64,000 nucleotides of DNA from Longimicrobiales bacterium (GCA_965202805.1 OZ241869.1:192001-256000); one strand, 5' to 3'. Positions 704-63,912 are shown, counted from the stretch's first letter. The notes: a model not told the origin generated them from the sequence alone. Made by a program: numbers and translations.

Positions 704-2506
704 CTACCCGCATCCCCGAGGCATATGATCCCGCGCGCGTCCGCCGGTTATACGGTCATCTACGACGGCGACTGCGCCGTATGCCTGCGCTTCGTCGACT
801 ACCTGCGGCGCCGCGACCCGGCGGGCACCATCGAGATCGTCGCCTGGCAGGAAGACGGAGTGCCGGCTCGCTTCCCCTGGATCGATCCCGCGCGCTTCGA
901 GGAGGCGCTCCAACTGGTGGGGCCGGGCGCAGCCTCCCGCGACACCTGGGAAGGCGCACGGGCCATCGAGCAACTCCTGCGGGTACTCCCACGCGGTCCA
1001 AGGCTGGGCTGGGTCTTCCGGCTCCCCCTGGCACGTCCCCTGTTCGCGTGGGGATACCGCAACTTCGCGCGCAACCGCCGCCGCTTCGGGTGCGGGGAGC
1101 ACTGTTCGCTGGAGACTGCTCGCGACTGAGCCGGGTTCCACACCCGGGACGAGCGAACCCCTTGCCTCGTAGGGAGACATGTCCAGGTCCTGCTCCTCGA
1201 AATACGCGAGGCGGTTCGGGATCGTCGTCAGGACGGTCCACCGGTCCTCCCGCGTCAGGCTTCCGGGCTGATACCGCACCGCGAAGTAAATGACCGCGCT
1301 CTCGGCGACATCCTCCCGGTTCGGATGTTGTCGGGCATACTCCGAGATGAACACGCCGTCGGCCTCCTGCGCGGCGCGCCAGCCGGCGGCGTCCGCGTGC
1401 TCCGGATCCAGTGAGACATGGGCAGCCTCGTGCAGGTATAGTTCCTCGAGCAAGCCATGGTGAAGGCTTTGCAGGGCGTTCTGGCTCTGCGAGTGAATCA
1501 GGATGCTCTGGTCGAACGAACTGCCCCCTGCGAGTCCGTCGCCGGGAATGATCGCCAATGCGCGCACATTCGACAGGAAGGCAGCGGGCAGTTGCGCCAG
1601 TGCGGGGGCAAACCGGTTTACCACCTCCGTGGCCGCCGGCAGGCTGTCATATTCCGGATGGAGCCGGAATTCCACTACCTGTTCGGCGATCGGCGCCTCG
1701 AACACGAACGCCTTGACGGGGATCCAGTTACTCAGCCGCCGGTCATAGAGCGTCCGCATCGCGCGGCCGAGGTAGGTTATGCTCGGCAGCGGCGTGCCGC
1801 TGGGTCCGAGGATGCGCGACGAGCGCCACGTCGTGTTGCTGAACGGGGTCACGCCGCTGTGTTCCATCGCGAAATCCCGCGTCACGTCGGCGTCCATGTT
1901 CAGTTCCACCGTCCGGCTCACATAGCTCAACTCGGCCTCGACGGTCACCTTCAGGGTCCCGCCCAGGTTCGGGAAGCGATACCGCCCATCGGCGTCGGTG
2001 ATCGTGGTGGTCCGCTTCCAGCCCTCCAGGCGCACGAGAACCCCGGGCAAGACCAGGCTTGGCCTCCGGCTGTCGGTCACCGTGCCGGACAGGGTGAACG
2101 ACGGTGCATCGACCCTGATGACCACCGAGTCCGATGCCTCGCGGATCTCGCCGACGACGATGGTCGTGCCGGTGCCGACGGCCATTACCCGTCCCGCCGA
2201 CGTGACCTCCGCAACCGTGGAGTTCCGGGTGAGCCAGGTAACATGGGCACCCGGCATCACACGCCCGTCCTGGTCGCTGACTTCGGCGGTGAGCCGGGCC
2301 GTGTCCCCGAGCGTTGTGAACGTCACGGTGTCGGGCGCGACGGCCACCGTCGTGGGACGGGGAGGATCGACGGGTGTGGGCTCGGTGCCTCCGTCGCCGC
2401 ACGCGCTGGCCCAGATGGCTGCCACCAGGGAGGCGGCCGCGAGGCTCCGTGTGCGGCGACCGCGTGCACTACCCGTGTTCAGAGCCAACGTGCACGTCCT
2501 GCTCAA
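704..2506 (-). CDS. Lipoprotein: Big_2 Ig domain, carboxypeptidase-regulatory-like domain and HEXXH zinc-peptidase-like tip; 3' end reads through the DCC1 gene
   Basis: Signal with ASAC lipobox, linker GDGGTEPTPVDPP, Ig repeat, LSGTVTD...DADGRYRF, and ELYLHEAAH...REDVAES. Plausible protein ends near 1130-1180 but the stop is at 704. Confidence 0.75.
   Translation of the reverse strand: MSRTCTLALNTGSARGRRTRSLAAASLVAAIWASACGDGGTEPTPVDPPRPTTVAVAPDTVTFTTLGDTARLTAEVSDQDGRVMPGAHVTWLTRNSTVAEVTSAGRVMAVGTGTTIVVGEIREASDSVVIRVDAPSFTLSGTVTDSRRPSLVLPGVLVRLEGWKRTTTITDADGRYRFPNLGGTLKVTVEAELSYVSRTVELNMDADVTRDFAMEHSGVTPFSNTTWRSSRILGPSGTPLPSITYLGRAMRTLYDRRLSNWIPVKAFVFEAPIAEQVVEFRLHPEYDSLPAATEVVNRFAPALAQLPAAFLSNVRALAIIPGDGLAGGSSFDQSILIHSQSQNALQSLHHGLLEELYLHEAAHVSLDPEHADAAGWRAAQEADGVFISEYARQHPNREDVAESAVIYFAVRYQPGSLTREDRWTVLTTIPNRLAYFEEQDLDMSPYEARGSLVPGVEPGSVASSLQRTVLPAPEAAAVAREVAVSPREQGTCQGEPEDPAQPWTAWEYPQELLDGPCAFPGVAGGCARPHQLERLLEARGIDPGEASRHSVFLPGDDLDGARRVAAPQVVDEAQAYGAVAVVDDRITGGRARDHMPRGCG
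725..1129 (+). CDS. DCC1-like thiol-disulfide oxidoreductase (DUF393 family)
   Basis: VIYDGDCAVC (DxxCxxC) N-terminal motif and C-terminal YRNFARNR; ATG at 725 within ORF 257..1129. Confidence 0.85.
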   Translation: MIPRASAGYTVIYDGDCAVCLRFVDYLRRRDPAGTIEIVAWQEDGVPARFPWIDPARFEEALQLVGPGAASRDTWEGARAIEQLLRVLPRGPRLGWVFRLPLARPLFAWGYRNFARNRRRFGCGEHCSLETARD

Positions 2507-14215: not shown

Positions 14216-14297
14216 TTTCGCAGGGAACGCAACTCAGCCCGCGAACCGGAGACGCCCAACACCGTCGCGACGCCCACCGCTGGAGGTGCTCGAACCC

Positions 14298-15560: not shown

Positions 15561-16766
15561 ATGAGGAGACCTGAGCCGTGGCGGGCCGGACCCGCCTGCA
15601 CCGTAGCGGTGCCCATTGTGGCGTTGGTTGTGACTTTCGCCTGTGGCGGCGATGACGAGACGGTGCCCACCGAGCCTCCGGAGCCGCCCGTCGCCACAAA
15701 CATCAGCATTTCGCCGGCTTCCGCGGACTTCTCGTCGTTCGGCGAGACGCTCCAGCTGACCGCGGCGGTTCTCGACCAGAACGGCCAGTCGATGGCGGGC
15801 GCGTCCGTCGGCTGGGCCATCAGCGACAATTCGGTCGCGACCGTGAGCGGAAACGGACTGGTCACCGCCGTCCGGAACGGAAGCACCACCGTCACGGCCA
15901 CATCGGGCTCCGCGGCCGGGACCGCCTCCGTCACCGTCGCCCAGCGGACCGCCCGCGTGGACGTATCCCCGGATGCCCACACCCTCTCCGCCATCGGCGA
16001 CTCCGTTCAGCTCGCCGCCGCGCCCTTCGACGCCAACGACAATGCCGTCGAAGACGCAACCATCACGTGGTCCTCGGAAGACGACGCCGTCGCGACCGTC
16101 GACGACAACGGCCTGGTCACCGCGGCCGGAAACGGCACTGCGAACATCACCGCTCAAGCGGACGCAGCCGCCGGCGCCGCGGCGGTCACGGTCTCGCAGG
16201 TGATCGTCGAGATGGACGTGGTGCCGTCCGCGACGACGCTCTTCTCGCTGGGCGATACCCTCCGGCTGGTTGCGACCGGTGTCGACGCCAACGGCCACCA
16301 CGGCTCGGCCCTGGCGGTCACCTGGATGTCCGAACACGCCGCCGTCGCGACCGTCGATTCGACGGGACTGGTCACGGCCGTGCGTACCGGCAGCACGGAC
16401 GTGTTCGCGACCACCGGCGAACTGCGCGATTCCGCGGGCGTGACGGTCGCGCAGCTTGCAACGGAGGTGCGCGTGACCCCGGCAGTCGACACCCTCGTGG
16501 TCGGCGGCACCGTGCGCCTGAGCGCCGTCGCCCTCGACGCGAACGGACACGAGGTCGAGGACACCGACTACGTCTGGTCCACGCTCAGCTCGTCGGTGGT
16601 GACGGTCGACGACAGCGGCCTGGTCACCGCCGCCGGGCCGGGAACGGGAGCGATCCAGGTCAAGGCGACGCGCGCCGGTGCGAACTACGTCGGCACGGCC
16701 ACGATTACGGTGCTTGCATCAGCGGGCGCGGGACGTGCCGCCGCCCCGGGAAGCCGTGACCCTTGA
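15561..16766 (+). CDS. Lipoprotein with four Big_2 Ig-like domains and no catalytic tip
   Basis: FAC lipobox, PTEPPEPP linker, four ~85-aa repeats (W...VATV...GLVTA...G...T). Confidence 0.85.
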   Translation: MRRPEPWRAGPACTVAVPIVALVVTFACGGDDETVPTEPPEPPVATNISISPASADFSSFGETLQLTAAVLDQNGQSMAGASVGWAISDNSVATVSGNGLVTAVRNGSTTVTATSGSAAGTASVTVAQRTARVDVSPDAHTLSAIGDSVQLAAAPFDANDNAVEDATITWSSEDDAVATVDDNGLVTAAGNGTANITAQADAAAGAAAVTVSQVIVEMDVVPSATTLFSLGDTLRLVATGVDANGHHGSALAVTWMSEHAAVATVDSTGLVTAVRTGSTDVFATTGELRDSAGVTVAQLATEVRVTPAVDTLVVGGTVRLSAVALDANGHEVEDTDYVWSTLSSSVVTVDDSGLVTAAGPGTGAIQVKATRAGANYVGTATITVLASAGAGRAAAPGSRDP

Positions 16767-23164: not shown

Positions 23165-24346
23165 ATGATCGCTCGAAGAGCACTGGCGGACGTGCAAACC
23201 GCGCTTTCGCGCCAGGCGGCCGTCGCGCTGCTCGGTCCCCGACAGGTGGGCAAGACGACGCTGGCGCTCGAAGTGGCGCGGGCGCATCGGGCGCTCTACC
23301 TGGATCTGCAATCGCGCGAAGACCGGGAGAAGCTCCGTCATCCCCGCGTTTTTCTGCGAAGGTACGAGGATCGCCTGGTGATCCTGGATGAGATCCACCG
23401 GACGCCCGAGCTGTTTTCCGACCTCCGGGGCCTCATCGACGAAGGCCGGCGCCACGGTCGTCGCACAGGGCGATTCCTCATTCTCGGGTCCGCCTCCATG
23501 GAGCTGCTCCGGCAGGCGGGCGAGACCCTTGCCGGCAGGATCGAGTTCGTGTCCCTGCATCCGCTGGATGTGCTGGAGGTGTCCGCTGCCGACGACACCA
23601 GGGACTCGCTCTGGCTTCGAGGGGGCTTTCCCGATGCGTTCCTCGCGGGGAGTGACGGGGACAGCCTGGTTTTTCGCCAGAACTTCATCCGAACGTACCT
23701 GGAACGGGACCTGGCCGAGTTCGTCCAGGCCCGCATTCCGGCGGAAACCCTCCTGCGGCTGTGGACCATGCTGGCCCACGGGCAGGGCGGGCTGCTGTCC
23801 TCCGCCTCTCTGGCGAAGGGCCTCTCCGTCAGCGCCCCAACCGTGACGCGCTACGTAGACACGTTGTCCGGCCTCTTCCTGATTCGCCGACTGCCGCCCT
23901 TTGCGGCCAACGTGCGCAAGCGGCTCGTCAAGTCGCCCAAGGTCTATATCCGTGACAGCGGCGTCGTGCACGCGCTGCTGGGGATCGGCAACTTCGAGGC
24001 GCTCGCCGGGCATCCGATCGTCGGCACCAGTTGGGAGGGGTTCGTCATCGAGAACCTGCTCGCGGCAGCCCCTCCTCTGACCCGCGCCAGCTTCTACAGG
24101 ACGGCGGCTGGCGCCGAAATGGACCTCGTGCTGGAACTGCCCGGCTACCGCCGCCCCTGGGCGGTCGAGGTCAAGCGCAGCATGGCGACGAGCCTCGGCA
24201 GGGGCTTCCACAACGCCATGGGCGACCTCGGGCCCGAGCGAACATTCGTCGTCTGTGCCGATCAGGGCCGCTACGAGATCGCGGTCGGGACCGAGGTGAT
24301 CGGCCTTCGGGAGATGACGGCCCTGCTGACCGGTCTCGCCATGTGA
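23165..24346 (+). CDS. AAA_14-type ATPase with DUF4143 C-terminal domain
   Basis: GPRQVGKTT, ILDEIH, ILGSAS, ETLAGR, RGGFP, KRLVKSPKVYIRDSG, EMDLV...AVEVK. Confidence 0.9.
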   Translation: MIARRALADVQTALSRQAAVALLGPRQVGKTTLALEVARAHRALYLDLQSREDREKLRHPRVFLRRYEDRLVILDEIHRTPELFSDLRGLIDEGRRHGRRTGRFLILGSASMELLRQAGETLAGRIEFVSLHPLDVLEVSAADDTRDSLWLRGGFPDAFLAGSDGDSLVFRQNFIRTYLERDLAEFVQARIPAETLLRLWTMLAHGQGGLLSSASLAKGLSVSAPTVTRYVDTLSGLFLIRRLPPFAANVRKRLVKSPKVYIRDSGVVHALLGIGNFEALAGHPIVGTSWEGFVIENLLAAAPPLTRASFYRTAAGAEMDLVLELPGYRRPWAVEVKRSMATSLGRGFHNAMGDLGPERTFVVCADQGRYEIAVGTEVIGLREMTALLTGLAM

Positions 24347-46659: not shown

Positions 46660-46890
46660 TCAGGCCAGGTACCGCTCCATCAACACCTTCCGGTGATGGC
46701 GCGAGTGCCCGGCGATGATCCAGGCCAGGCTTCGGACGGTGAACTCGTTGCCGCTGGCCACGCCGCGCCGATTCCATGCGTCCTCCGGGAAGCTGCGCAG
46801 CAGCAGGAGGGTTGCCGTCCGGACGGCCGACAGCTCCTCGGAGAGATCGGCAGGGGTGCGCTGGTCGGCCCCGGATTCGGCCGCGTAGGC
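46660..46890 (-). pseudogene. 3' half of a DinB-family metalloprotein gene (5' half missing)
   Basis: Hand translation AYAAESGADQRTPADLSEELSAVRTATLLLLRSFPEDAWNRRGVASGNEFTVRSLAWIIAGHSRHHRKVLMERYLA*; no start codon and an in-frame TAG at 46927-46929 upstream. Confidence 0.75.
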
Positions 46891-47447
46891 AGATCGGCTG
46901 AGGCCAGAATCCCGGCAGGATATCTTCTAAAGTCTTACAGGACTGCACGATCTGCGTTTCCTGCCGTTGTACTGGACCCTGCTGGACCGTGCCGCGAAAG
47001 CGGGAAAAACGGAGTTGAATGGCGGGACTCCCGCACCGGTGCTGACTCTTCGCCGATGGTCCCGGAAGCCCGCTTTCGGCCACCCCTTTGGGAAAGCAGA
47101 GTCCTCTCCAGGCGTTTCGGCCATCGGACCTGCCGGAGCGCCGCCCGGTCTCCGGGCGTGGGCCGCGCCGCTTCCGGCATTGAGATTCCGGTGATCCCGG
47201 GTTGCGAGGCCAAGTCATCCGAATCATCGGCGAATTCTCGTCGAAGCGGAGCGATTTCTCGGCCACAACTCGGACGCCAAGTGCTATCCTTAACGGTCAT
47301 GCGCGTAGTAGGCGCTCAGGCGACCCGAGCCTTCGCGACATCCTCGAACCTCCCCGAACGGGCGGCGAGACGGTGGACTCCGACTACTCCCATCGTAAAG
47401 ACCGGCGACCCATCGCTAATCTAAGAGCCGATCCGATCCGTATCGGC

Positions 47448-50400
47448 ATGATGCGCGCCCGCCCATTTCATCTTCCTCCCCTCGCCCTCCTGACCGCGCT
47501 GCTGGCGGCGACGTTCTTCTTGGCTTGCCTGGACGGCGACGCCCCGACGGAGCCGCCTCCGCCCGAACCCCTCCGGGCGACGACGATCACCGTGAGCCCG
47601 GCCACGGTCGATCTGGCCGCACTGGGTGCGACGGTTCAGTTGTCCGCGCAAGTTCAGGACCAGAACGGTCAGGGGATGGCGGGCGCAGCCGTGACCTGGG
47701 CGAGCGCCGCGGCCGCCGTGGCGGCGGTAAGCACGTCCGGGCTGGTCACGGCGGTGGCCAACGGAAGCGCCACGATCACGGCGACCTCGGGATCGGCCTC
47801 GGGAAGCGCTGCGGTGACTGTGGCCCAGACGGTCAGTTCGGTGGCGGTGACACCGGATACGGCCAGCCTTGTGGCTCTTGGCGACACGGTGCGGCTGTCC
47901 GCCGAGGCGTTCGACGCGGACGGGAGCGCAGTGGCGGGCGCCGAGTTCTCGTGGGAGTCCAGCGACGAGTCCGTGGTGGCAGTGGACGCTTCAGGGCTGG
48001 CAACGGCGATGGCGAACGGGACGGCCACGATCACGGCGACCTCGGGATCGGCCTCGGGAAGCGCTGCGGTGACCGTGGCTCAGGCGGTCAGTTCGGTGGC
48101 GGTGACGCCGGATACGGCCAGCCTTGGGGCTCTTGGCGACACGGTACGGCTGTCCGCCGAGGCGTTCGACGCGAACGGGCATGCCGTGGCGGGCGCGGAG
48201 TTCTCGTGGGAGTCGAGTGACGAAGGGGTGGCGACGGTGGACGGCTCGGGTCTGGTGACGGCGGTGGGCAACGGGCAGGCGACCATCACGGCAGCGGTTG
48301 GTGATGCGCTTGGGCAATCCGCGATCACGGTCGCAGCGAACCGCGCCCCGATGGCGGTCGATTCGATCCCGCCCCATGTGGTGGTTCCCCGTGGCGAGGC
48401 ATCGGTGGACGTGACGCCGTACTTCAGCGACCCGGACGGCGACGCCCTGAGCTACGCGGCGGCCTCGTCCGCGCCGGAGGTGGCGGCCGCGGCGGTGTCG
48501 GGCGCCGAGGTGACCGTCACGGGCGTCTCGGCGGGGACCGCGACCATCACCGTGACCGCGAGCGATCCGGACGGGCTTTCGGCGCAGCAGGCCTTCCAGG
48601 CGACGGTAAGGCAAGCGGGATTCTCGATAACGGCGGTGGAACCGACCGTGCTGATCGAGGGTGACGAAGCGACGATCACCGGGTCCGGGTTCTCGTCCAC
48701 GATCACCAACAACCTGGTCACCATCGACGGGTTGCCCGCCAGAGTGGTGTCTGCGAGCCGGACGAATCTGGTGATCGGCGTCCCCGTCGCCGACTGTCGA
48801 CCGCCTCGCAGGGCGGAACTGAGGGTCTCGGTCGGAAGCCGGAGTGATTCTCTCACTGTTGGCGTTGCGCCGCTTGCCCAAGAGGACATGGCACTGCCGC
48901 AGTACTCCTACATTCACACGCGCGCCGGAGACGGCTGTGTCCATCTCCCCGGCAGCGCCAGCGGCGGCGAGTATCTGATCGGCGTGGTGTCCACGTCCGA
49001 GCGACCGGCATCCTTGACCTCCGTCACATTGAACGGCACTCCGGGAGATCTCACCGTCGCGGGGACGGCGGCAACAGCGTCGGCGTCGGCCAGGGCGGAG
49101 CTCCGGCGCATGCCGGCGCGACCCTTGGCGGACAACCCTTCGCAACCCGCCGCGCCCGCGCCCCGAGTGCCCGATTCGCCGGTTCTCGTGAGGGACGATT
49201 CCCTCCGCGTGCGCCGCGCGAGCGCCAACAACGAGGTCATGGCCAGGAACGCAGCATGGTTGCGCGAACTGGGACGCGCGTCGCCACCGGCCCCGGGCGC
49301 GGATGGGCAGCATCGCGGCCTTGAGGCGGGAGACACGACATCGGTATACGAACCCTCCTCAAACAACTGGGGGTGTTCGGCAGGAGGGCGCAGGATCGAT
49401 GCCGTGGTCCGCCTCGTGGGGAGCCACACGATCTGGCTGGAGGATCTCGACAACCCCAGCGGAACCTTCTCGAACTCCGAACTCGTGGATCTGGACGCCC
49501 TCTATGCGGCGCACATCGCCAGCGTTCTCGACGACTATTTCGGAGGCCTCTCCGACGTGGACGGCAATGGACGCATCCTGATTCTCATGACCCAGGAGGT
49601 CAATCGCTCGCAGGGCGCGGGAGGCTACGTCTTTCTTCCGGATCTTTGGCCGACCGACAGATGCGCAGCCAGCAACCGGGCCGAGATCCTCTACGGATGG
49701 GTGCCGGATCCGGACGGCGTCGTCGGCCCCGCCACGAGCAAGGAACGGGTGTTCGCCGACTACCCTTCGCTGATCGCTCACGAGGCGGCGCACATCGCGC
49801 AACACCGCGCTCGGGCCTTGGGCAACGCGGGAGAAAAGAAGTCGTGGGAACTGGAGGGCGGTGCGGTGTTGGCGGAACAACTGGTGGCCTATCGCCTGTT
49901 CGGGCACGCATCCGGCCAGAACCTGGGATACGCGGAGTTCTCGGCCGGAGCGCACTGGCAGTCGGGATGGTTTTGGGACATGGCCCGGTTCTTCGGATGG
50001 GATCCGGACAAGAGCGGCGGCCGGGTTCCGCACGCGCCTGAGCAGTGCACCTGGATCGGTCGGCCGAGAGAGGGGAACAGCGGTCCTTGCAGGCATCCGC
50101 AAACTGCGGTCTACGGAGTCCCCTCGATGGTCTTTCGCTACGCCCTGGATCGATGGGGCGGAGCATACCCGGGCGGGGAGGAGGCGCTGATGAGACGCCT
50201 CACGCAGTCGCCGACCCAGGGGTTTGCCTCCCTGCGCGATGTCAGTGCATGGCGCACCGAGGCGATACTTGCCGACTTCTACATCACCCTCTGGCTGGAC
50301 TTGCAGCCGGGTCTTCACGCACGAGGCATGACCTCCTGGAACCTCCACGACATCTTCGACCGGTTTCCCGAGACCACATGGCTGCAACCCCGTCCGTCCA

Positions 50401-50564
50401 CCTCAAGGACGCCGACGGCGAGCGCCAGGGTCCGGGCTGGCTCATCCCTGTACGTCCACTGGACGCCAGGCGGCTCGCTCGATCCGACGAGCATAAAGGT
50501 CACGGCGGGCGGGGGTGGCCCTGTCCCCGGCCACATTTCGGTCTGGGCTCTACGGATTCGGTAA
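47448..50564 (+). CDS. Lipoprotein: 3 Big_2, cadherin-like and IPT/TIG-like domains, plus an M30-like zinc-peptidase tip
   Basis: LAC lipobox, DGDAPTEPPPP, 85-aa repeats, NRAP...FSDPDGDALSY, ITGSGFS, DVDGNGRILIL, LIAHEAAH...WELEGGA. Confidence 0.82.
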   Translation: MMRARPFHLPPLALLTALLAATFFLACLDGDAPTEPPPPEPLRATTITVSPATVDLAALGATVQLSAQVQDQNGQGMAGAAVTWASAAAAVAAVSTSGLVTAVANGSATITATSGSASGSAAVTVAQTVSSVAVTPDTASLVALGDTVRLSAEAFDADGSAVAGAEFSWESSDESVVAVDASGLATAMANGTATITATSGSASGSAAVTVAQAVSSVAVTPDTASLGALGDTVRLSAEAFDANGHAVAGAEFSWESSDEGVATVDGSGLVTAVGNGQATITAAVGDALGQSAITVAANRAPMAVDSIPPHVVVPRGEASVDVTPYFSDPDGDALSYAAASSAPEVAAAAVSGAEVTVTGVSAGTATITVTASDPDGLSAQQAFQATVRQAGFSITAVEPTVLIEGDEATITGSGFSSTITNNLVTIDGLPARVVSASRTNLVIGVPVADCRPPRRAELRVSVGSRSDSLTVGVAPLAQEDMALPQYSYIHTRAGDGCVHLPGSASGGEYLIGVVSTSERPASLTSVTLNGTPGDLTVAGTAATASASARAELRRMPARPLADNPSQPAAPAPRVPDSPVLVRDDSLRVRRASANNEVMARNAAWLRELGRASPPAPGADGQHRGLEAGDTTSVYEPSSNNWGCSAGGRRIDAVVRLVGSHTIWLEDLDNPSGTFSNSELVDLDALYAAHIASVLDDYFGGLSDVDGNGRILILMTQEVNRSQGAGGYVFLPDLWPTDRCAASNRAEILYGWVPDPDGVVGPATSKERVFADYPSLIAHEAAHIAQHRARALGNAGEKKSWELEGGAVLAEQLVAYRLFGHASGQNLGYAEFSAGAHWQSGWFWDMARFFGWDPDKSGGRVPHAPEQCTWIGRPREGNSGPCRHPQTAVYGVPSMVFRYALDRWGGAYPGGEEALMRRLTQSPTQGFASLRDVSAWRTEAILADFYITLWLDLQPGLHARGMTSWNLHDIFDRFPETTWLQPRPSTSRTPTASARVRAGSSLYVHWTPGGSLDPTSIKVTAGGGGPVPGHISVWALRIR
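47531..48291 (+). repeat. Stalk repeat copy 1 (near-identical to 53576..54336; internal 255-bp period)
   Basis: Long exact runs shared at offset 6045; unit starts at 47820 and 48075. Confidence 0.9.
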
Positions 50565-50683
50565 GCGTGAGACGGCATCGCGAGCATCACACTTGTCCAG
50601 TCCCGGCGGGCAAGGCGTCGGGAACCGGCCTCGACGTGTTGTTCAGCCGAGGAATCGCAGATACGGAGGCATGGAGCAGATGA
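50565..50683 (+). pseudogene. Decayed C-terminal remnant of a paralog of the 50680..53466 gene
   Basis: Reads A*DGIASITL (cf. AWEGNLASITL) then GTGLDVLFSRGIADTEAWSR* (cf. GTGLDVLFSRGIPDTEAWRR*); the stop overlaps the next ATG. Confidence 0.75.
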
Positions 50684-50825
50684 CTCGGCAGACCGGGCGG
50701 AGGGAACGACATCGACCGAGGCGACCCGGACACCGGACCCTCGTCCGGCTCGGAGCCTTCCTCGCGGCCGTGGCCCTGGTCAAGGGGTGCGGGGACGGCG
50801 ACGCCCCGACAGGGCCGCCGCCCGA
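50606..50825 (+). repeat. Junction repeat copy 1 (similar to 53389..53608)
   Basis: Gene end, ATGA overlap and signal peptide repeated at offset 2783. Confidence 0.88.
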
Positions 50826-53466
50826 ACCCGAACCCGCCCATCCCACGGCGGTCGCCGTCAGCCCCGCCACCGCCGTGCTGGCCACCCTGGGCGCGACCGT
50901 GCAGCTCGAGGCCGAGGTGCGCGACCAGAACGGAAACGTGATGACGGGAGCCCAGGTCGTCTGGTCGAGCAGCGATACGCTGGTGGCGACCGTTGGCTCG
51001 TCCGGTCTGGTGACCGGGGCCGCCGAAGGCACCGCCACGGTCGCCGCGACCGCGGGCAGCGTACGAGGAACCGCGGAGATCACGGTCGTGGATTCGGCCA
51101 GGGACCCGGACCGGGCAGCACTGGTGGTGCTCTACCACGCGACCGGCGGGCCGGACTGGGTGGAGAACGACTACTGGCTGACGAACAGCCCGCTCGGTGA
51201 CTGGTTCGGAGTTGACACGGACGCCGATGGGCGAGTCGTCGATCTGGAACTGTGGAGCAATGACCTTAGCGGTTCGATTCCGCCCGAACTGGGCAGCCTC
51301 GACCGCCTTCGGTCCTTGAACCTTTACAACAACTACCTGGCGGGTCCGATCCCGCCGGAACTCGGCAACCTCGCCAGCCTTGAGGACCTGCGCCTCGACG
51401 ACACCAGGGTGTCCGGCCCGATCCCCCCGGAGCTCGGCAACCTCTCCGCCCTGCGGTCGCTATCCCTTGATGACAACAACCTGACGGGGCCGATCCCGTC
51501 CGAACTGGGCAAGCTCGGCAGCCTGAGACGGCTGGACCTCGCCGAGAACGAGCTGACCGGCCCGATCCCCCCGGAACTGAGCGAACTCGAACACCTGTGG
51601 GGGCTGTTCCTCCGGGGCAACCAGCTGACGGGGCCGATCCCGGCGTGGCTGGGTGACCTCCCCGACCTGTACTATTTGGCGCTTTCCGGCAACGTGCTGA
51701 CGGGCACGATCCCTCCCGAACTCGGAAACCTCTCCGAGTTGTCCCTCCTGGGGTTGGCCTCCAACCGTCTGTCAGGTCCGGTGCCCGATGAGTTCGGAGG
51801 AATGACGAAACTGCGGCGGCTCTACCTGACGAACAACCCCTGGCTGTCGGGGGCACTGCCGCCGAGCCTGACGGATCTCCGCCTGGAGGAATTGATGGCT
51901 GGGGGCACGGGCCTGTGCGCGCCGGAGGAGTCGGGCTTCCGAGCGTGGCTGCTGACGGTCCGCTTTTCGCGGATCCGCTCCTGTGAAGGCGGGTCCGCGA
52001 TGGCCTACCTTACCCAGGCCGTGCAGTCGCGCGAATACCCGGTCCCGCTGGTCGCGGGCGAAGAGGCCCTGCTGCGGGTGTTCGTCACGGCCACGCGTTC
52101 CACGACGGTCGGCATCCCTCCCGTCCGGGCGCGTTTCTACGTGAACGGGACCCTGCGCCATGTGGTGGACATCCCGAGGAAGACATCGTCGATCCCCACC
52201 CAGGTTGTCGAAGGGAATCTGTCCGGGTCCGCGAACGCAGTGATCCCCGGCGAGGTCGTGCAGCCCGGTCTTGAGATGGAGATCGAGGTCGATCCGGACG
52301 GGACGGTGGACGCCGGTCTCCTGATGGCGAGGCGGATCCCGGAGACCGGGCGCGTGGCCGTGGAGGTGCACGAGATGCCGGCGTTCTCCTTCACGCTGAT
52401 CCCGTTCGTCTGGCGCGCCAACCCCGACTCGGCGGTCATCGGAATGACGCAGGGCATGGCGGCAGACCCTCAGGGCCATGAACTGCTCTGGCATACACGC
52501 ACCCTGCTTCCGATCGACTCTCTCGAAATCACGCTCCATCCGCCTGTGGTGACCTCGACCAACAATACCGGGCTGCTGGCGGACGAGATGTCGGCAATAC
52601 GGGCTCTGGAGGGCGAGGACGCCTACTATGTGGGCACGATGAGCGGCACTATCAGCGGTTCCGCCTACGCGGGCTGGGCGGTCGCGTTTGTGTGGTTGGA
52701 CGGGGGGGTTATCGCTCACGAGTTGGGCCACACCCTGGACCTCTTGCATGCGCCTTGCGGCAACCCGAGCCTGGTCGACGAGGCGTACCCCTATCCGGAC
52801 GGATCCATCGGTGTCTGGGGGTACGACTTCCGCCAAGGCGGGAGTCTGGTGTCCCCGAACGCGCGGGACATAATGGGCTACTGCGGGCACGATTGGGTCA
52901 GCGACTACCACTTCACCAGGGCGCTCCGCTACCGCCTCTTCAACCCACGCGCGCCGGTGTCCGCCGATTTTGGCGCCGCGGCCGGTGCGAGCGCCGAGTC
53001 TCTGCTCCTTTGGGGCGGGACCAGCGCGGACGGCAAGCCCTACCTCAACCCCGCTTTTGTGGTCGACGCCCCGCGAACGCTGCCGGACCACACGGGAGAG
53101 CACCGCATCGTCGGCCGCACGGCTGGCGGGCGTGAGCTCTTTTCCCTCAGCTTCACGATGCCCGAGATCGCCGACGGCGACGGGAACTCGTCGTTCGCTT
53201 TCGTTGTGCCGACGCGGCCCGCCTGGGAAGGCAACCTGGCCAGCATCACGCTCACCGGCCCAAGCGGCTCGGTCACCCTGGACGGCGACAGCGATATTCC
53301 GATGGCCATCCTGCGCGATCCACGGACCGGGCAGGTGCGGGGGATCCTGCGCGACCCGCCACCCGCCACGCAGGCCGCCGCGGACGTAGCGGGACAGGGC
53401 GTCGGAACCGGCCTCGATGTCTTGTTCAGCCGCGGGATTCCGGATACGGAGGCGTGGCGCAGATGA
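50680..53466 (+). CDS. Lipoprotein: Big_2, ~9 plant-type LRRs and an M66-like zinc-metalloprotease domain
   Basis: VKGC lipobox-like, LxGxIPxELGxLxxL 24-aa repeats, YLTQAVQ...LVAGEEALLRVF, IAHELGHTLDLLHAPCG, DIMGYC. Confidence 0.85.
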   Translation: MTRQTGRRERHRPRRPGHRTLVRLGAFLAAVALVKGCGDGDAPTGPPPEPEPAHPTAVAVSPATAVLATLGATVQLEAEVRDQNGNVMTGAQVVWSSSDTLVATVGSSGLVTGAAEGTATVAATAGSVRGTAEITVVDSARDPDRAALVVLYHATGGPDWVENDYWLTNSPLGDWFGVDTDADGRVVDLELWSNDLSGSIPPELGSLDRLRSLNLYNNYLAGPIPPELGNLASLEDLRLDDTRVSGPIPPELGNLSALRSLSLDDNNLTGPIPSELGKLGSLRRLDLAENELTGPIPPELSELEHLWGLFLRGNQLTGPIPAWLGDLPDLYYLALSGNVLTGTIPPELGNLSELSLLGLASNRLSGPVPDEFGGMTKLRRLYLTNNPWLSGALPPSLTDLRLEELMAGGTGLCAPEESGFRAWLLTVRFSRIRSCEGGSAMAYLTQAVQSREYPVPLVAGEEALLRVFVTATRSTTVGIPPVRARFYVNGTLRHVVDIPRKTSSIPTQVVEGNLSGSANAVIPGEVVQPGLEMEIEVDPDGTVDAGLLMARRIPETGRVAVEVHEMPAFSFTLIPFVWRANPDSAVIGMTQGMAADPQGHELLWHTRTLLPIDSLEITLHPPVVTSTNNTGLLADEMSAIRALEGEDAYYVGTMSGTISGSAYAGWAVAFVWLDGGVIAHELGHTLDLLHAPCGNPSLVDEAYPYPDGSIGVWGYDFRQGGSLVSPNARDIMGYCGHDWVSDYHFTRALRYRLFNPRAPVSADFGAAAGASAESLLLWGGTSADGKPYLNPAFVVDAPRTLPDHTGEHRIVGRTAGGRELFSLSFTMPEIADGDGNSSFAFVVPTRPAWEGNLASITLTGPSGSVTLDGDSDIPMAILRDPRTGQVRGILRDPPPATQAAADVAGQGVGTGLDVLFSRGIPDTEAWRR

Positions 53467-53608
53467 CTTGGCGGGCCTGTGGGAAGGAACAACATCGGCC
53501 GAGGCGACCCGGCCACCGGACCCTCGTCCGGCTCGCAGCCTTGCTCGCGGCCGTGGCCTTGGCCAAGGGGTGCGGGGACGGCGACGCCCCGACAGAGCCG
53601 CCTCCGCC
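53389..53608 (+). repeat. Junction repeat copy 2
   Basis: Matches 50606..50825. Confidence 0.88.
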
Positions 53609-55832
53609 CGATCTACCCCGGGCGACGACGATCACCGTGAGCCCGGCCACGGCCGATCTGGCCGCACTTGGTGCGACGGTTCAGTTGTCCGCGCAAGTTC
53701 AGGACCAGAACGGTCAGGCGATGGCGGGCGCAGCGGTGACCTGGGCCAGCAGCGCGGCCGCCGTGGCGGCGGTAAGCACGTCCGGGCTGGTCACGGCGGT
53801 GGCCAACGGAAGCGCCACGATCACGGCGACCTCGGGATCGGCCTCCGGAAGCGCGACAGTGACCGTGGCCCAGTCAGTCAGTTTGGTGGCGGTGACGTCG
53901 GATACGGCAAGCTTTGGGGCTCTTGGCGACACGGTGCGGCTGTCCGCCGAGGCGTTCGACGCGAACGGGAGCGCAGTGGCGGGCGCCGAGTTCTCGTGGG
54001 AATCGAGCGACGAGTCGGTGGCGACAGTGGACGCGTCCGGGCTGGTGACGGCGGTGGCCAACGGGAGCGCCACGATCACGGCGACCTCGGGATCGGCCTC
54101 GGGAAGCGCGGCGGTAACCGTGGCTCAGGCGGTCAGTTCGGTGGCGGTGACACCGGATGCGGCCAGACTTGGGGCTCTTGGCGATACGGTGCGGCTGTCC
54201 GCCGGGGCGTTCGACGCGAACGGGCATGCCATGGCGGGGACGGAGTTCTCGTGGGAGTCGAGCGACGAAGCGGTGGCGGCGGTGGACGGCTCGGGTCTGG
54301 TGACGGCGGCGGGCAACGGGACGGCGACCATCACGGCGACCTCGGATTCGGCCTCGGGGAGCGCAACGGTGACGGTGGCGCAGGACGTGAGCGCGGTCAC
54401 CGTGACGCCAGCGACCGATACGGTGGTGGCGGGCGACACGCTTCGACTGGTCGCGGAGGCCACCGACGCGAGCGGCCATCCGGTGGCGGGGGCCGAGCTC
54501 TCGTGGGCGTCCGGCGACACGACGGTCGCGACCGTGGACCCGTCGGGGCTGGTCACCGGAGTCGCGGCCGGGGAGGTCGAAATCGCCGCCACTTCGTCCG
54601 GGGTGACGGGCCGCGCGGCACTCGCGGTCGCGGACCCGGTGCCCGCGGCGGTGGTGGTGACTCCCGACACGGTGTTGCTGAGCGCGCTCGGACAGACCGC
54701 GCAGTTGGCTGCGGAGGTGCGCGACCAGATCGGGCGCATCATGGAGGGCAGCCTGGTTGTCTGGTCGAGTGCGGACACCAACGTCGCGGCGGTCGATACG
54801 GCCGGACTGGTGACGGCAATCGGCGGAGGCGCGACCACGATCACCGCCACCGCTGGCGAGGTCTCCGTCACGGCGGTAGTGACGGTCACGCAGTCGGCCC
54901 GTTCGGTCGTCGTGTCGCCAGCCGCGGACACGGTCGCGCCCGGCGACACGCTGCGGCTCGCCGCGGAGGCGTTCGACGCCAACGGCCATGCAATCACGGG
55001 CGCGGTCTTCGAGTGGTCGTCGCCCGACACGGCTGTGGCTGTGGTGGACGCAGTTGGTCTGGTTACGGGGGTTGGGGCGGGAGAGGTTGAGATTACGGCC
55101 ACTGCGGGCGGGGGAGGCGTGTCCGGAAACGCGGCGGTGCGCGTGATGAAGTCGGCTCAAGCCTGTGCCGTCACGAGGTCCCTGGCGCTACGCCATGACG
55201 CTCAGTTTGGAAACCACGGAGTGGTCCGTGAGTGGGACGGAACCCCGTTCCGGGTGGACATGGTACGCAACTTTCCCGAGTTCGTCACCGACGCCGATCT
55301 CCAGCGGTTGCTCGATCCGGTCGGTCGGCTTGCAGATCAGATCGAGACGCAACTCGGGTACCGGATTGTGGAGATGGGAGGACTCGTCGAAGTTCCGTCG
55401 GGCGCCGCGGTCGGCTGGGATCAGAGATTCGATCAGTATTTCCAGTCCCATCGCCTTCGGGAGCGTGGCCAGATTCTTGTGTTCTACATGAATGACGACA
55501 ACCCGCAGGATTGGGACGGCCGGGGTGGGGCACCGATGAGTGCACACCCCTGCTGCGGGACGATTACCTATAACAAACGGACCATGGGGCCTTGGTGGAC
55601 GGATGACGATCCTTGCTGCAAGGGCAACGCCAACGGACGCAACGGAGAGACCCTCGTCCACGAGTTGTTTCATCTCCTGGGTTTCAAGCATGCCTTCAAT
55701 CAGCCCGAGCTTGTCGGAGTCAAGATGTCGCGCGATGGGCTCGACAGTCCGTGGACGACCGGATCTCGGATCTTCTACGCCACACGGAGCGATGTGGACA
55801 ACCTCCGGTGCATCTTTCCCGAAGGGGGATGA
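53463..55832 (+). CDS. Lipoprotein: 6 Big_2 domains plus a metzincin-like tip
   Basis: AKGC lipobox-like, six ~85-aa repeats, HELFHLLGFKH followed by a Met-turn-like KMS; ATG overlaps the previous stop (ATGA). Confidence 0.85.
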   Translation: MTWRACGKEQHRPRRPGHRTLVRLAALLAAVALAKGCGDGDAPTEPPPPDLPRATTITVSPATADLAALGATVQLSAQVQDQNGQAMAGAAVTWASSAAAVAAVSTSGLVTAVANGSATITATSGSASGSATVTVAQSVSLVAVTSDTASFGALGDTVRLSAEAFDANGSAVAGAEFSWESSDESVATVDASGLVTAVANGSATITATSGSASGSAAVTVAQAVSSVAVTPDAARLGALGDTVRLSAGAFDANGHAMAGTEFSWESSDEAVAAVDGSGLVTAAGNGTATITATSDSASGSATVTVAQDVSAVTVTPATDTVVAGDTLRLVAEATDASGHPVAGAELSWASGDTTVATVDPSGLVTGVAAGEVEIAATSSGVTGRAALAVADPVPAAVVVTPDTVLLSALGQTAQLAAEVRDQIGRIMEGSLVVWSSADTNVAAVDTAGLVTAIGGGATTITATAGEVSVTAVVTVTQSARSVVVSPAADTVAPGDTLRLAAEAFDANGHAITGAVFEWSSPDTAVAVVDAVGLVTGVGAGEVEITATAGGGGVSGNAAVRVMKSAQACAVTRSLALRHDAQFGNHGVVREWDGTPFRVDMVRNFPEFVTDADLQRLLDPVGRLADQIETQLGYRIVEMGGLVEVPSGAAVGWDQRFDQYFQSHRLRERGQILVFYMNDDNPQDWDGRGGAPMSAHPCCGTITYNKRTMGPWWTDDDPCCKGNANGRNGETLVHELFHLLGFKHAFNQPELVGVKMSRDGLDSPWTTGSRIFYATRSDVDNLRCIFPEGG
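53576..54336 (+). repeat. Stalk repeat copy 2
   Basis: Matches 47531..48291; unit starts at 53865, 54120 and 54375. Confidence 0.9.
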
Positions 55833-55867
55833 GATCGAGAGCCCCCGGCGCTCCCGCCGTTCTCGGC

Positions 55868-56596
55868 TTAGCCGACCGGAACTCCCAGGCCCGCCCGAAT
55901 CGTCAGCGCCCGGTGCTTCACCGATCCGCCAGGATCATCGCTGACGTTGGAGAGTCCCAGAGTATAGAGCAAGCCCAGATGGGCATTGATCGAGTCGGTC
56001 AACCCGATCTCGATTCCGGCGCCCCCGGCGAGGCCGACATCGACCGTCCGAAAACCGAGCTCGGCTTCGTCGCAGTCGACGCTGCCGGTGACTGCGGGCT
56101 CGTCGAGGCCGCTGAGGCGGACAACTGCTTCGCATGAATGCCGCAGGCCCAGCGCCGGGCCCGCGAGCAGGTGTCCGGAAACGCGGTCGCCCGACAGCGG
56201 AAACCCGACTCTGGCCAGGGCCGTGAGCTCGACATAGTCCATCTCGTAGTCGGCGTCGAAAATCGCGCCCGGCGGCATCTCCTCGAGCCCGCCCAACATG
56301 TCACCCATCCTCTCCAGGACCCCGAGCACGTCCAGGCGTGCTCCCTTCTGAGCGTAGCGTCCTCCCAGCTGGAGCCCGAACCGGTCCGAGACCGGAAGGG
56401 TGGCCGCCATGCCGACCGACATCCTCGTCAGGGATTCGAACCCGGGAGAAAGTGTCCCGTCGCCATCGGTGTCCAGGGAGGTGATGTTCACGCCACCGGT
56501 AAGCGACAGCGTCGTCTGCGCGCGAACAGGCGCTCCCGGCGTGAGGAAGGCGGCGGTCAGGAGTGTGGACAGCAGGAGTATGGGAAGCCGCTTCAT
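55868..56596 (-). CDS. Outer-membrane beta-barrel (porin/PorT-like) protein
   Basis: Signal peptide ending VRA-Q, GGVN, YAQKG, DYVEL, LAGP, YTLGLSNV, terminal beta strand. Confidence 0.78.
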   Translation of the reverse strand: MKRLPILLLSTLLTAAFLTPGAPVRAQTTLSLTGGVNITSLDTDGDGTLSPGFESLTRMSVGMAATLPVSDRFGLQLGGRYAQKGARLDVLGVLERMGDMLGGLEEMPPGAIFDADYEMDYVELTALARVGFPLSGDRVSGHLLAGPALGLRHSCEAVVRLSGLDEPAVTGSVDCDEAELGFRTVDVGLAGGAGIEIGLTDSINAHLGLLYTLGLSNVSDDPGGSVKHRALTIRAGLGVPVG

Positions 56597-60427: not shown

Positions 60428-61480
60428 TCAAGGGACATGATCGGTTGCGGGCGCGACACCGGGGCAGTTGGGGCAGGCGTGGTCAGCTTCTCGCGCGAAA
60501 TGGTGGACCAGGAAGCGGACGGCTTCTCCGTCGGCGTGGATGGATGCACGCCAGGGAACCGGGCCTTCGACGAAGCCGACGTGGCCGCCACCCGGCGCGA
60601 ACGCCGCCACCAGGTGCGGGTTGGCCGCCACCTGCTCATCGGGGATTGCGTCGGGGCTCGCAATGGGATCGTCGCGGCTCTGGATGAGCAACACCGGCAC
60701 CCGGATGCGCGGGAGGAACGGGCGGGCGTCCGACCTGGCGTAGTAGTCGGCGGCGTCGGCGAAGCCGTGCAGCGGAGCCGTGACGGCGTCATCGAACTCG
60801 CGCAGGGTGCGGGCGTGGAGGGCGCGCCCGGTGTCGATGATCCCGTCGAGCATCGTCCGTTTGGCTTCCACCTTCCTCCGCAGCGAACGCAGGAAGTAGT
60901 GGGTGTAGAGACCACCCATGAAGCCGCGGCTGACCCGGTCGCAGGATGCGGCCAGATCGAAGGGTACGCAGATGGTCGCGGCGGCGGTGATCGGGCTGTC
61001 CGCCCCTCTCTCGCCCAGGTACTTGATGATGACGCTTCCCCCCAGGCTGAAGCCGATCGCGCCGATGGGCCGGCCGGGGTAGCGGCGCCGGAGGTGCTCG
61101 GTGACGAAGGCCAGATCGCCCGTCTCCCCGGCGTGGTAGAAGCGTGCCGTCCGGTTCGGTTCTCCCCCGCAGCCGCGGAAGTTCAGGCCCACGCCCCGTA
61201 CGCCGCGGTCGAACAGGCGGCTGAGCACGCCCGCCGCGTAGGGGCGGCGGATGTAGCCTTCCAGGCCGTGAAGCACGAGCGCGATGGGGGCGTCCGGGCC
61301 CGGGTCGGGCGTGAGGTCGAGGTCCACGAAGTCGCCGTCCGGGGTGTCCAGCCGGCGGCGTTCGAGCGGGATCCAGCCGGGAGGGCGGAAGAAAACCCCC
61401 GCAAAGGTCTGGGCGTGCGGGGCCCTCAGCCACCACGGGGGCCGGAACGCGCGCGGCCGGAAGCGCGAGTGGAAGTTCAG
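60428..61480 (-). CDS. YheT-family alpha/beta hydrolase (start uncertain, possibly CTG)
   Basis: FRPPWWL...HAQT, TPDGDFVDL, LHGLEG, FRGC, GFSLGG, FDDAVTAPLHGF, DDP, GGHVGF. Confidence 0.88.
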   Translation of the reverse strand: MNFHSRFRPRAFRPPWWLRAPHAQTFAGVFFRPPGWIPLERRRLDTPDGDFVDLDLTPDPGPDAPIALVLHGLEGYIRRPYAAGVLSRLFDRGVRGVGLNFRGCGGEPNRTARFYHAGETGDLAFVTEHLRRRYPGRPIGAIGFSLGGSVIIKYLGERGADSPITAAATICVPFDLAASCDRVSRGFMGGLYTHYFLRSLRRKVEAKRTMLDGIIDTGRALHARTLREFDDAVTAPLHGFADAADYYARSDARPFLPRIRVPVLLIQSRDDPIASPDAIPDEQVAANPHLVAAFAPGGGHVGFVEGPVPWRASIHADGEAVRFLVHHFAREADHACPNCPGVAPATDHVP

Positions 61481-63912
61481 CGCCCGTTCCCCGGATCCAG
61501 AATCGCCTCGATGCGCACCAGCACGTCGTCGTAGTGGAGCCGGGTCGCCCGGTCGCGGGTGCGCCCGGCGCCCGCGCGCACCTCCCCGGCCAGCGTCGCA
61601 AGCTGTCCGCGCACCGCCGGCACGATGTCCGTGGCAAGGGCGTCCTCGTCCTCCATCAGTTCCGCGAAGCGCTCGAGATGCGCGCGCTGCAGATTGCGCC
61701 TGTAGGTATCCGTGGCCTCGCCGCTCGCAGTCTCCCGCCACACCGCGCCGCGCAGGTCGTCGAGCATCTCGTTGAGCCCGTAAGCCTCCGCGCCGCCGAA
61801 CGCCTCCTGCTCGATCAGGCGCTTCATGCGGTTCACGTCGAGGAGGCGGTTGAGGGCCGAGGCCTGCCAGCCCCCCAGCAGGTCCGGCGCGCCCGATCCC
61901 TGCACGCGGTCGAGGATGTCCGGATCGATCAGCCATGACGGAGTGCGGAAGACCTGCTCGTCCAGATAGGCCATCGCCCGTTCCTGGGCCTCACGCTCGA
62001 CCCGCTCGTAGGGGTAGCCCTCCTGGTCCTGGCTCTTCCGGTTCCAGCGCACCCCGCCGACGTTGGTCAGCACATGGCCCGAGTAGCGGTTCCACTGCGC
62101 GCCGATCTGCTGGTGCAACTCGCGCAATTGCGCGTAGTCCTCGCCCTCCTCGTAGGTCCAGTCGCGCAACGACGAGGCGATGCGCTTCAGGTTGGCGATG
62201 CCCAGTTCCGACGCGCGCATGGCATCGTCGCCGATGGCCTCGGTGAGCGACTCGGGGTCGGCCTGGCTGGGGTCGCCGAAGCGGTACACGGGGTCGTCGC
62301 CCGTGTCCAGGATCCACTTGTGCAGCGTCGGCCGCTCGTCGTCCGGCGAGGCCGCGTCCGGGATGGGCCGGTAGCCCCAGCGGACCGAGTAGATGTCGTA
62401 CGGGCCCACGCGAGGCAGCACGCAGGCGTCGTCTCCGGGCTGCGCCACGTAGTTGAAGCGCGCATAGTCCATGATCGAGGCCGCCGTTCCCATCGAGCAG
62501 GTGAAACTCGTGCGCAGGGAGTCGACCGGGTACGCGGCCGACGACTTCATGTTGTGCGGCAGCCCGATGGTGTGTCCCACCTCGTGCGCGGAGACGAAGC
62601 GGATCAGCTCGCCCATCACCTCGTCCTCGAACTTCACCCCGCGCGCGTTGTCCTCCCTGGCCGCCGTCTGCACCAGGTACCAGTTGCGCAGCAGGTTCAT
62701 CACGTTGTGGTACCACTGGATGTCGCTCTCGAGGATCTCCCCTGTCCGCGGATCGTGGACATGAGGTCCAGACGCGTTCTGGACCGATGAGGCCAGGTAG
62801 CGGATGACCGAATAGCGCGCGTCCTCGGGGCTCCAGTCGGGGTCCTCCTCCGGCGAAGGGGGCTCCCGCCCCTCGATGGCGTTGCTGAATCCCGCGGCCT
62901 CGAACGCCACCTGCCAGTCGTTCACGCCCTGGATGATGTACGGGCGCCACTTCTCCGGCGTGGCCGGGTCCACGTAGTAGACGATGGGCTTCACCGGGTC
63001 GACCAGCTCGCCGCGCGCCCACGCTTCCGGATCGGAGGGCTCGAGGCGCCAGCGGGTGATGAAGCGCTCCTGCTCGGCGCGCTGCTCGTCCAGCGCGTAG
63101 TTGGTGCGGGTCACCGAGAAGTAGCCGACCCGCTCGTCCCACAGGCGCGGCTGCATGGGCTCGTCGGGGAGCAGCAGCATCGAGTGGTTCATCTCGAGCG
63201 AGAGGGTGTTCGACTCGGTGTCCGAAGGAGCCTCGGTGGCCTGGTAGGTCACCACCCGCCGCACCTCGAGGTTGCGCGGAAAGCTGCGCACCGACTCGAT
63301 GAAGGTGCGGTCGCCGTCGAGGTTGCGAACCTCGTAGGCCTCTCGCCGCTGCGGACGAATGCCGAGGAGCGGCACGTCGCTCTCGAACAGGTCGTTGACC
63401 TGGATGACGACCGCCGACGAGTCCTCGGACAGCGTCTCGATGTCGAAGACGTGGATGACCGGCTCGAAGTTGGAGTTGAGCACCGACGGATAGATGGTGC
63501 TCTCCGGGTCCGCGTAGTTCTCGTGGCTCACCTGGCGGAGCAGCACCTGATCGCCGCGCCGCTGCCAGCGCACCACCGCGGTCCCCTCCTTGGCGCCGCC
63601 CCAGCCCACGTTCTCCGCGGTGCGGGAGATGCGCGAAACCACCAGCATTTCCCGCCCCAACTGTTCGACGGGGATCTCGTAGAAGAAGTCGGTATCCAGC
63701 TGGTGGACGGCGAACAGGCCGTCGTCGCTGGCGGCCTCGGCGGTGATGACCTCGGCGTACGGCGGCATGGCGTCGTCGTCCCGGTCGGGCTGCGCCGGCG
63801 AGGGAGCGGGGCCGGGATCCGCGCGCCCGCCGGCGCAGGCGGCCAGGACGAGCGGAGCGAGCAGGAGGGAGAGGCGGCGAGCCGGATGAACGGGTGTGTC
63901 AGAGCGTTTCAT
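61477..63912 (-). CDS. Zinc-dependent metalloprotease lipoprotein (DUF5117/DUF4953, EcxA-like)
   Basis: LAAC lipobox, LLPDEPMQPR...RVGYF, KPIVYY, DPRTGEI, HEVGHTIGLPHN, SIMDY, YDIYSVRWGY. Confidence 0.9.
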   Translation of the reverse strand: MKRSDTPVHPARRLSLLLAPLVLAACAGGRADPGPAPSPAQPDRDDDAMPPYAEVITAEAASDDGLFAVHQLDTDFFYEIPVEQLGREMLVVSRISRTAENVGWGGAKEGTAVVRWQRRGDQVLLRQVSHENYADPESTIYPSVLNSNFEPVIHVFDIETLSEDSSAVVIQVNDLFESDVPLLGIRPQRREAYEVRNLDGDRTFIESVRSFPRNLEVRRVVTYQATEAPSDTESNTLSLEMNHSMLLLPDEPMQPRLWDERVGYFSVTRTNYALDEQRAEQERFITRWRLEPSDPEAWARGELVDPVKPIVYYVDPATPEKWRPYIIQGVNDWQVAFEAAGFSNAIEGREPPSPEEDPDWSPEDARYSVIRYLASSVQNASGPHVHDPRTGEILESDIQWYHNVMNLLRNWYLVQTAAREDNARGVKFEDEVMGELIRFVSAHEVGHTIGLPHNMKSSAAYPVDSLRTSFTCSMGTAASIMDYARFNYVAQPGDDACVLPRVGPYDIYSVRWGYRPIPDAASPDDERPTLHKWILDTGDDPVYRFGDPSQADPESLTEAIGDDAMRASELGIANLKRIASSLRDWTYEEGEDYAQLRELHQQIGAQWNRYSGHVLTNVGGVRWNRKSQDQEGYPYERVEREAQERAMAYLDEQVFRTPSWLIDPDILDRVQGSGAPDLLGGWQASALNRLLDVNRMKRLIEQEAFGGAEAYGLNEMLDDLRGAVWRETASGEATDTYRRNLQRAHLERFAELMEDEDALATDIVPAVRGQLATLAGEVRAGAGRTRDRATRLHYDDVLVRIEAILDPGNGR

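Follow-up and report, generated by a model that had tools for sequence, protein, structure and literature searches.

We identified a tandem array of 3 genes for predicted surface lipoproteins in a 64,000-nucleotide stretch (the window; G000:C1:192001-256000) of the genome of a Longimicrobiales bacterium (GCA_965202805.1), which is assembled as 1 contig of 4.02 Mb and 68% GC. Each gene encodes a stalk of immunoglobulin-like (Ig) domains, and the stalks end in 3 mutually unrelated domains, or tips, predicted to be zinc proteases. The array was inserted into a dinB-family gene, which it truncated, and recombinant forms of its proteins are present in other assemblies. We consider it probable that the locus represents an inserted array of Ig-stalk lipoproteins with different zinc-protease tips that exists in recombined forms in related strains. 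A preliminary description of the window had proposed that recombination between stalks swaps tips and alters their reach, by analogy with polymorphic toxins; recombinants among strains and species and tree tests support the proposal, but the analogy is loose because the array has neither immunity genes nor orphan cassettes. The array was listed in 19 sequencing runs, including 9 labeled sponge metagenome, 4 labeled marine metagenome, and 6 with coded organism names, and named carriers of the second tip were Longimicrobiales, Ca. Palauibacter, Gemmatimonadetes metagenome-assembled genomes (MAGs), and 1 Latescibacterota MAG. We infer that the bacterium is a sponge-associated member of Gemmatimonadota; habitat is treated in PMC11651109.

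The 3 co-oriented open reading frames (ORFs; Table 1) start with the motif C-x-DGDAPT-x-PPP and carry stalks of 3, 1, and 6 Big_2 units in genes 1, 2, and 3, respectively, as the preliminary description had it and as ORF calling and domain scans confirmed; the units are spaced 255 bp apart, with 252 bp once. It had overlooked the Big_9 and IPT/TIG domains of gene 1, a 300-aa leucine-rich repeat (LRR) block in gene 2, and the relic of an M66-type gene. A 762-bp block is common to genes 1 and 3 (in gene 3 at 53576-54337) and drops to background identity within ~30 bp of its end, so that its length and abrupt end stood, but "near-identical" did not, with 92.7% identity and differences at 19/166 fourfold sites (0.114). 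The junction and signal block common to genes 2 and 3, described as ~220 bp, measured 217 bp at 85% identity. The 115-bp gap between genes 1 and 2, occupied by the relic tail, and the 4-bp ATGA overlap between genes 2 and 3 leave no room for immunity genes, consistent with the reported lack of interspersed immunity-like ORFs; a further 38 bp follow gene 3. The leader of gene 1 passes a relaxed lipobox pattern (as do 29/37 Cys-bearing leaders of the family), whereas those of genes 2 and 3, with Lys at position -2, fail it, so that these 2 products are putative lipoproteins. The lower GC content at third codon positions (GC3) claimed for the tips held for tip 3 (161/226 vs 434/512, p 3e-5) but not for gene 1 (p 0.26) or gene 2 (p 0.41). 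Promoter and terminator scans yielded only chance-level hits.

Table 1. Features of the array, its insertion site, and related solitary genes, in window coordinates.
Feature	Coordinates	Strand	Composition and remarks
Gene 1	47448..50564	+	Leader A, 3 Big_2, 1 Big_9, IPT/TIG, predicted M30/lugdulysin-like gluzincin tip
Stalk block common with gene 3	47531..48292	+	92.7% identity; begins at putative DGDAPT crossover block
Putative crossover zone in Big_9 (FSDPDGD)	48420..48445	+	Upstream like G008 gene B, downstream like G008 gene C
Tip 1	48864..50561	+	HEAAH ~49779-49793; invariant downstream Glu E331, E338 (tip numbering)
Relic 3' end of M66-type gene	50606..50683	+	62/78 nt identical to true gene 2 tail; ends in ATGA overlap with gene 2 start
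Gene 2	50680..53466	+	Leader B, 1 Big_2, LRR block (51097-51996), predicted M66/reprolysin-like metzincin tip (51997-53463)
Gene 2 tip motifs	within 51997-53463	+	HELGHTLDLLH ~52717-52749; Met-turn candidate M293 of tip
Gene 2 tail, leader B, and DGDAPT block	53389..53605	+	Second copy 50606-50822 (85%)
Gene 3	53463..55832	+	Leader B, 6 Big_2 (53616-55151), predicted matrixin-fold metzincin tip (55152-55829; HELFHLLGFKH ~55659-55691); tip GC3 0.71
3' remnant of dinB-family gene	46660..46890	-	5' part (~330 bp, about half) replaced by array island; intact in congeners; DinB_2 on G006 copy
~140-bp dispersed genus-wide repeat, left island edge	46892..47035	+	5 copies here, 0-41 per congener; inserted at the identical base in G005 and G013
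Gene 4, solitary	704..2506	-	Big_2, CarboxypepD_reg, zincin tip (M90/ATLF/Mx1-like, a lead only); stable, outside array
Gene 5, solitary tip-less lipoprotein	15561..16766	+	Big_2 x4; all 13 proteins of its cluster 401 aa long; outside array

No significant similarity was found among the 3 tips (best BLASTP E 0.13), in agreement with the preliminary description. Tip 1 is a predicted M30/lugdulysin-like peptidase: a profile of 26 sequences matched lugdulysin (PDB 7bb8) at E 1.2e-23 over ~200 positions, a predicted model matched the same structure at Foldseek E 3.5e-13 with 14% identity in the structural alignment, and H306, E307, H310, E331, and E338 are invariant among the 26 sequences, whose Pfam matches at E 0.05 included no M30 model. 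Like lugdulysin, tip 1 has a DxDxNG segment, HEXXH, and a downstream Glu; unlike it, tip 1 is fused to IPT/TIG and an Ig stalk. It had matches in 57 of 61 family-wide genomes. Tip 2 is a predicted metzincin that would lie between M66 (StcE/TagA) and reprolysin, with H241, E242, H245, and H251 invariant and M293 nearly invariant in 16 sequences, and with Asp in the window copy at the usual Gly position of the HEXXHXXGXXH-type motif. PF10462 was identified in 15 of the 16 members (best E 8e-9) and reprolysin models in 10; profile matches in PDB were weak reprolysins, StcE was not among the best 60 of 70, and a single-sequence PDB search gave no match. M66-like tips had 4-31 matches per genome in 19/19 genus genomes, compared with 0-3 in most other members of the phylum sampled. 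Tip 3 appears to represent an uncatalogued family of predicted matrixin-like metzincins, with 144 representatives at 50% identity. Its predicted model (pLDDT 94) matched matrix metalloproteinases (Foldseek E 4e-4), and the top structural matches were all metzincins (Z up to 8.4, root-mean-square deviation ~4.2, 154-170 positions aligned). The HEXXHXXGXXH motif and Met-turn M197 are nearly invariant, and language-model neighbors were M10-bearing clusters (score 0.95); no Pfam family (E 0.01; M10 included) or NCBIfam family matched, and a pattern search of JGI metagenomes found no match. Strong matches occur in only 2 of 18 congeners. Tip 3 was likely acquired by lateral transfer from another lineage, because in its closest homologs (70-78% identity) the domain is preceded by Big_12 repeats or by further N-termini unrelated to those of the array; carriers bearing FN3 are 41-58% identical.

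The array is not invariant across strains. Besides the proteins of the window, the 90%-identity clusters of genes 1-3 hold 14 proteins, and 6 of these are recombinant. P0083 joins a gene-1-type leader (22/27 to gene 1, 7/27 to gene 2) to the gene 2 body (879/891), and P0252 a B-type leader to the gene 1 body (tip 565/566), while P0374 and P0375 begin in the end of a B-type leader and continue as the gene 1 body. These 4 swap the signal peptide only, an exchange that alters order and probably the expression slot and leaves the mature protein unchanged. P0076 follows gene 2 through SSGLVT (75/77 to gene 2, 52/76 to gene 3) and then continues as a gene-3-type stalk of 5 units with tip 3 (224/226); it is present on 2 contigs, the longest of 4.5 Mb. 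P0078 is gene 3 less one 85-aa unit (703/704). The gene 1 copy of P0375, on a 25,464-bp contig, is frameshifted shortly after HEXXH.

These forms likely arise by ordinary homologous or microhomology crossover between co-oriented leader and Ig-unit repeats, and the crossovers would fall in the most conserved motifs, namely, the DGDAPT block behind the Cys and, within the Ig units, SGLVT (Big_2) and FSDPDGD (Big_9). A crossover in DGDAPT would change which mature protein stands behind the first leader of the array, and one in an Ig unit would place a new tip on a stalk or alter stalk length. A single DGDAPT crossover could also gain or lose a gene-sized loop of M66 tail, leader B, stalk, Big_9, TIG, and M30 tip, and its gain would turn the arrangement of P0083 into that of the window; such an event is in keeping with the relic M66 tail and the doubled leader B. 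The loop model was set down before P0252 was examined, and P0252 has the predicted donor form. As judged from the sequences, recombination likely varies both the protease displayed and its reach.

Exchange is visible between species as well. The array of congener G008 comprises an M66 gene, gene B (2 Big_2, Big_9, and another tip), and gene C, in which tip 1 (86% nucleotide identity) stands on 6 Big_9 units with TIG. Compared window by window, gene 1 resembles G008 gene B (18-25/30) up to ~48420 and gene C thereafter (mostly 22-29/30). Fourfold-site divergence between G000 and G008 is 0.19-0.24; the lower value of the block common to genes 1 and 3 indicates that this sharing is younger than the split of the 2 genomes and is not being homogenized. 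Shuffling belongs to a between-strain timescale and is not rapid phase variation. In a quick-method tree of leader plus first Big_2 (56 rows), genes 1 and 3 pair as sister branches (support 100) within a clade (support 96) that mixes 5 tip types (M66, GH113, M30, matrixin-like, and another). Approximately unbiased (AU) tests on quick trees (52 of the 56 rows, after 4 long branches were dropped) rejected placing the 32 M66-tipped N-termini in one clade (p 9e-11) and likewise the 2 tipB N-termini (p 0.003); grouping of N-termini by tip is thus rejected, in a form of the incongruence test that the preliminary description had called for. Counting tip changes on this tree gave 18 changes for 16 states, an uninformative figure that was not used. 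In congener arrays Big_2-LRR-M66 repeats predominate, other tips appear now and then behind leaders of the same types, and fragments of M66-type genes are present in congeners. One array (G011:C1:111700-140200, L096-L097) comprises at least 5 consecutive Big_2-LRR genes of the same orientation, whose leaders closely resemble one another and whose tips are mostly M66-like, with 1 other HEXXH tip and 1 tip-less gene. The G008 array (G008:C20:1-12000, L001) adjoins ORFs that we take, from the appearance of their sequences, to be AlpA-, TrbC/VirB3-, and VirB4-like, which suggests an integrative conjugative element.

Several observations weigh against a recombining array. Among the strain recombinants, P0076 alone truly exchanges head and tip, and the nonrecombinant cluster members either keep the window form (4) or are uninformative fragments (4). 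The recombinants are known as proteins and not as DNA, and their sharing of contigs was deduced from equal contig sizes. P0083 and P0078 each come from single 5.9-kb contigs, and repeat collapse could give P0078. Contigs of 7 runs, which drop rare variants, gave no well-supported swapped joint, and most of the 15 joints listed out of 137 have short sides and unknown middles. Further, in large congener arrays most genes retain an M66-like tip, and recent partial-gene identities (at least 88%) are few.

The insertion itself is evident from the remnant of the dinB-family gene and from the locus in 18 congeners, where the flanks close up without the array in 13, the 140-bp repeat lies at the same base in 2, and 3 are uninformative. 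In G005 the repeat at this site has a restriction-type gene as cargo, and the G013 copy lies at a contig end. The repeat is likely the end of a mobile element; other copies in this genome lie near G000:C1 504220, 1014850, 2001306, and 3313005. Within 600 bp of M66-like genes it was found for 5/21 genes in G002 (p 0.0005) and 1/23 in G006 (p 0.38), the 2 genomes on which the association was computed, with G001 (3 contigs) left out. The repeat had no Rfam match, and no tRNA or Rfam RNA was identified at the island edge. Its core is invariant and its predicted hairpin moderate (z -2.3); a GCG-type target usually precedes it, and it marks island borders; 1 copy follows the 5' half of a tRNA-Ile. 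ARAGORN called a tRNA with anticodon TTA, possibly spurious, inside an island at G000:C1:502084-502165. On the right, 3 runs from 2 studies also show different DNA following tip 3 after 55838, which makes the right boundary of the island variable among strains; this alternative sequence was not found in the 19 genus genomes, and a loose end at 55843 in 1 run looks like the empty dinB site.

Mis-assembly, which the preliminary description had named as a hazard, is highly improbable. Repeats of 762, 255, and 217 bp are indeed present in the array, which none of the contigs examined from other studies covers whole, but such contigs bridge each unique junction with few differences: stalk-Big_9-tip 1-gene 2 leader (48156-50760), gene 2-gene 3 leader (50982-53593), stalk-tip 3 (54175-55260), and tip 3-flank (55809-56403). 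Moreover, the proteins of all 3 genes were found on one 41,916-bp contig, and the repeats differ by 7-15%.

Repeats in a mobile island and a large paralog family might also produce the rearrangements incidentally, without selection for tip variety and with some products decaying; this is a real possibility, if a less than even one. The array sits in an island that broke dinB and holds a relic gene end, P0375 carries a frameshift, congeners contain the M66-type fragments, and a tandem family of 9 non-protease PQQ lipoproteins is mosaic as well (pairwise segments 85-92%). Such neutral churn accords less well with crossovers that leave frames open, proteins full length, and zinc motifs intact, or with tips conserved in many genomes, the M66-like tip being kept in all 19 genus genomes. 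A programmed, shufflon-like switch, in which a site-specific recombinase would act within populations at a short core at the D-G-D-A codons, is unlikely. One 12-mer does occur 4 times in the window, always in the array at presumed crossover zones, and 10 times genome-wide; however, the P0076 crossover in SGLVT lacks it, the G008 partner unit differs in sequence at the crossover, and the crossovers fall in 3 different motifs. The genes are all co-oriented with no inverted cassettes, no swapped joints were seen within samples, and the block common to genes 1 and 3 has diverged by 11% at fourfold sites. The nearest tyrosine recombinase is >600 kb away; serine recombinases were not searched for.

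Polymorphic toxins combine a conserved N-terminal presentation region with variable C-terminal enzymes, recombine, and can bear zincin tips (Zhang et al. 2012, PMC3482391). The array is like them in its constant N-terminal region, stalk-like repeats, and variable C-terminal domain, yet a role in interbacterial attack with protease warheads is very unlikely. No immunity genes stand directly downstream of the tips, no orphan toxin-immunity or tip cassettes were found in the array (tip-only entries such as P0079, known as protein only, may be contig-edge calls), and the 36 ORFs scanned for domains include no secretion-system genes. In the array each unit forms a complete gene that starts with a leader of its own, and the products are predicted to stay anchored in the membrane, not to be delivered. 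Recombination also affects leaders and stalk length, and in the wider family the same stalks carry glycoside hydrolases (GH12, GH113) and binding or other domains (spondin, CARDB, PQQ). The locus is thus a recombining array of predicted surface lipoproteins and not a polymorphic toxin system. The nearest protease analog is the KLIKK peptidases of Tannerella forsythia, a host-associated bacterium, which likewise have clustered genes for peptidases of disparate families, thermolysin-type and metzincin-type included; as presented in PMC9890683, they are soluble, have a C-terminal domain of the type IX secretion system in common, and are each accompanied by a lipoprotein inhibitor gene. In the array, by contrast, the genes have a Cys leader and Ig stalk at the N-terminus in common, inhibitor genes are lacking, and strain recombinants are seen. 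Leptospira Lig proteins are lipoproteins with Big_2 repeats, and Mycoplasma and Borrelia have tandem lipoprotein genes with common leaders that recombine. Those systems vary adhesins or antigens, some with dedicated recombinases, whereas here the varied parts are unrelated catalytic domains. No description of such protease-tipped arrays was found in the literature searched, which included few subscription papers and no supplements.

In sponge symbionts, LRR and adhesion-type repeats are enriched and laterally transferred (Robbins et al. 2021, PMC8163846). In the main text of that survey of ~1200 sponge MAGs, no collagenases were identified, the words "peptidase" and "protease" are absent, and, unlike its repeat proteins, protease-tipped arrays are not described. 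Two of our 3 tips have no Pfam match and the third barely passes, and such surveys would therefore miss them. The predicted proteases would act at the cell surface on proteins or glycoproteins, most probably those of the sponge matrix, and so provide food or a niche. The strain-level recombinants mean that unrelated peptidase clans are exchanged on 1 predicted surface scaffold in a likely sponge symbiont, and the tips, as compact and expressible domains, make host-matrix processing by sponge symbionts testable. A broader proposal is tentative and rather doubtful: sponge-associated Gemmatimonadota may, under selection, exchange unrelated and largely uncatalogued zinc proteases and some glycosidases with other symbionts across phyla and join them by recombination to lipid-anchored Ig/LRR stalks in mobile arrays, each strain displaying its own set of host-matrix-cutting enzymes at a set reach, and these may be the collagenases and mucinases that surveys missed.

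Our searches gave 49 Big_2/Big_9 ORFs for this genome, not all of them lipoproteins; 16 of the 49 have HEXXH. Further members terminate in GH12, GH113, spondin, CARDB, FGase-like, or PQQ domains, which points to the scaffold as a predicted general surface-display chassis, with the protease array its most dynamic part seen here. Tandem arrays of Big_2 and PQQ-propeller lipoproteins lie at G000:C1:2869579-2883101 (6 genes) and 3313723-3320401 (3 genes), with patchy segments of 85-92%. The fourth tip and the tip-less copy reported elsewhere in the window do exist (genes 4 and 5), but both lack the DGDAPT block and are stable singletons; the constant architecture of the cluster members read rules them out as array members, and the 14 other members listed of the 19 in the gene 4 cluster are 571-600 aa and 92-99% identical. 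Around gene 5 lie Fic, AlbA_2/Fic-like, and AAA_14/DUF4143 genes (14175-15425, 16848-18449, 22994-24346), which suggests another flexible region. The window also encodes, on the minus strand at 61477-63912, another Met-zincin (DUF4953/DUF5117/DUF5118), which lacks an Ig stalk.

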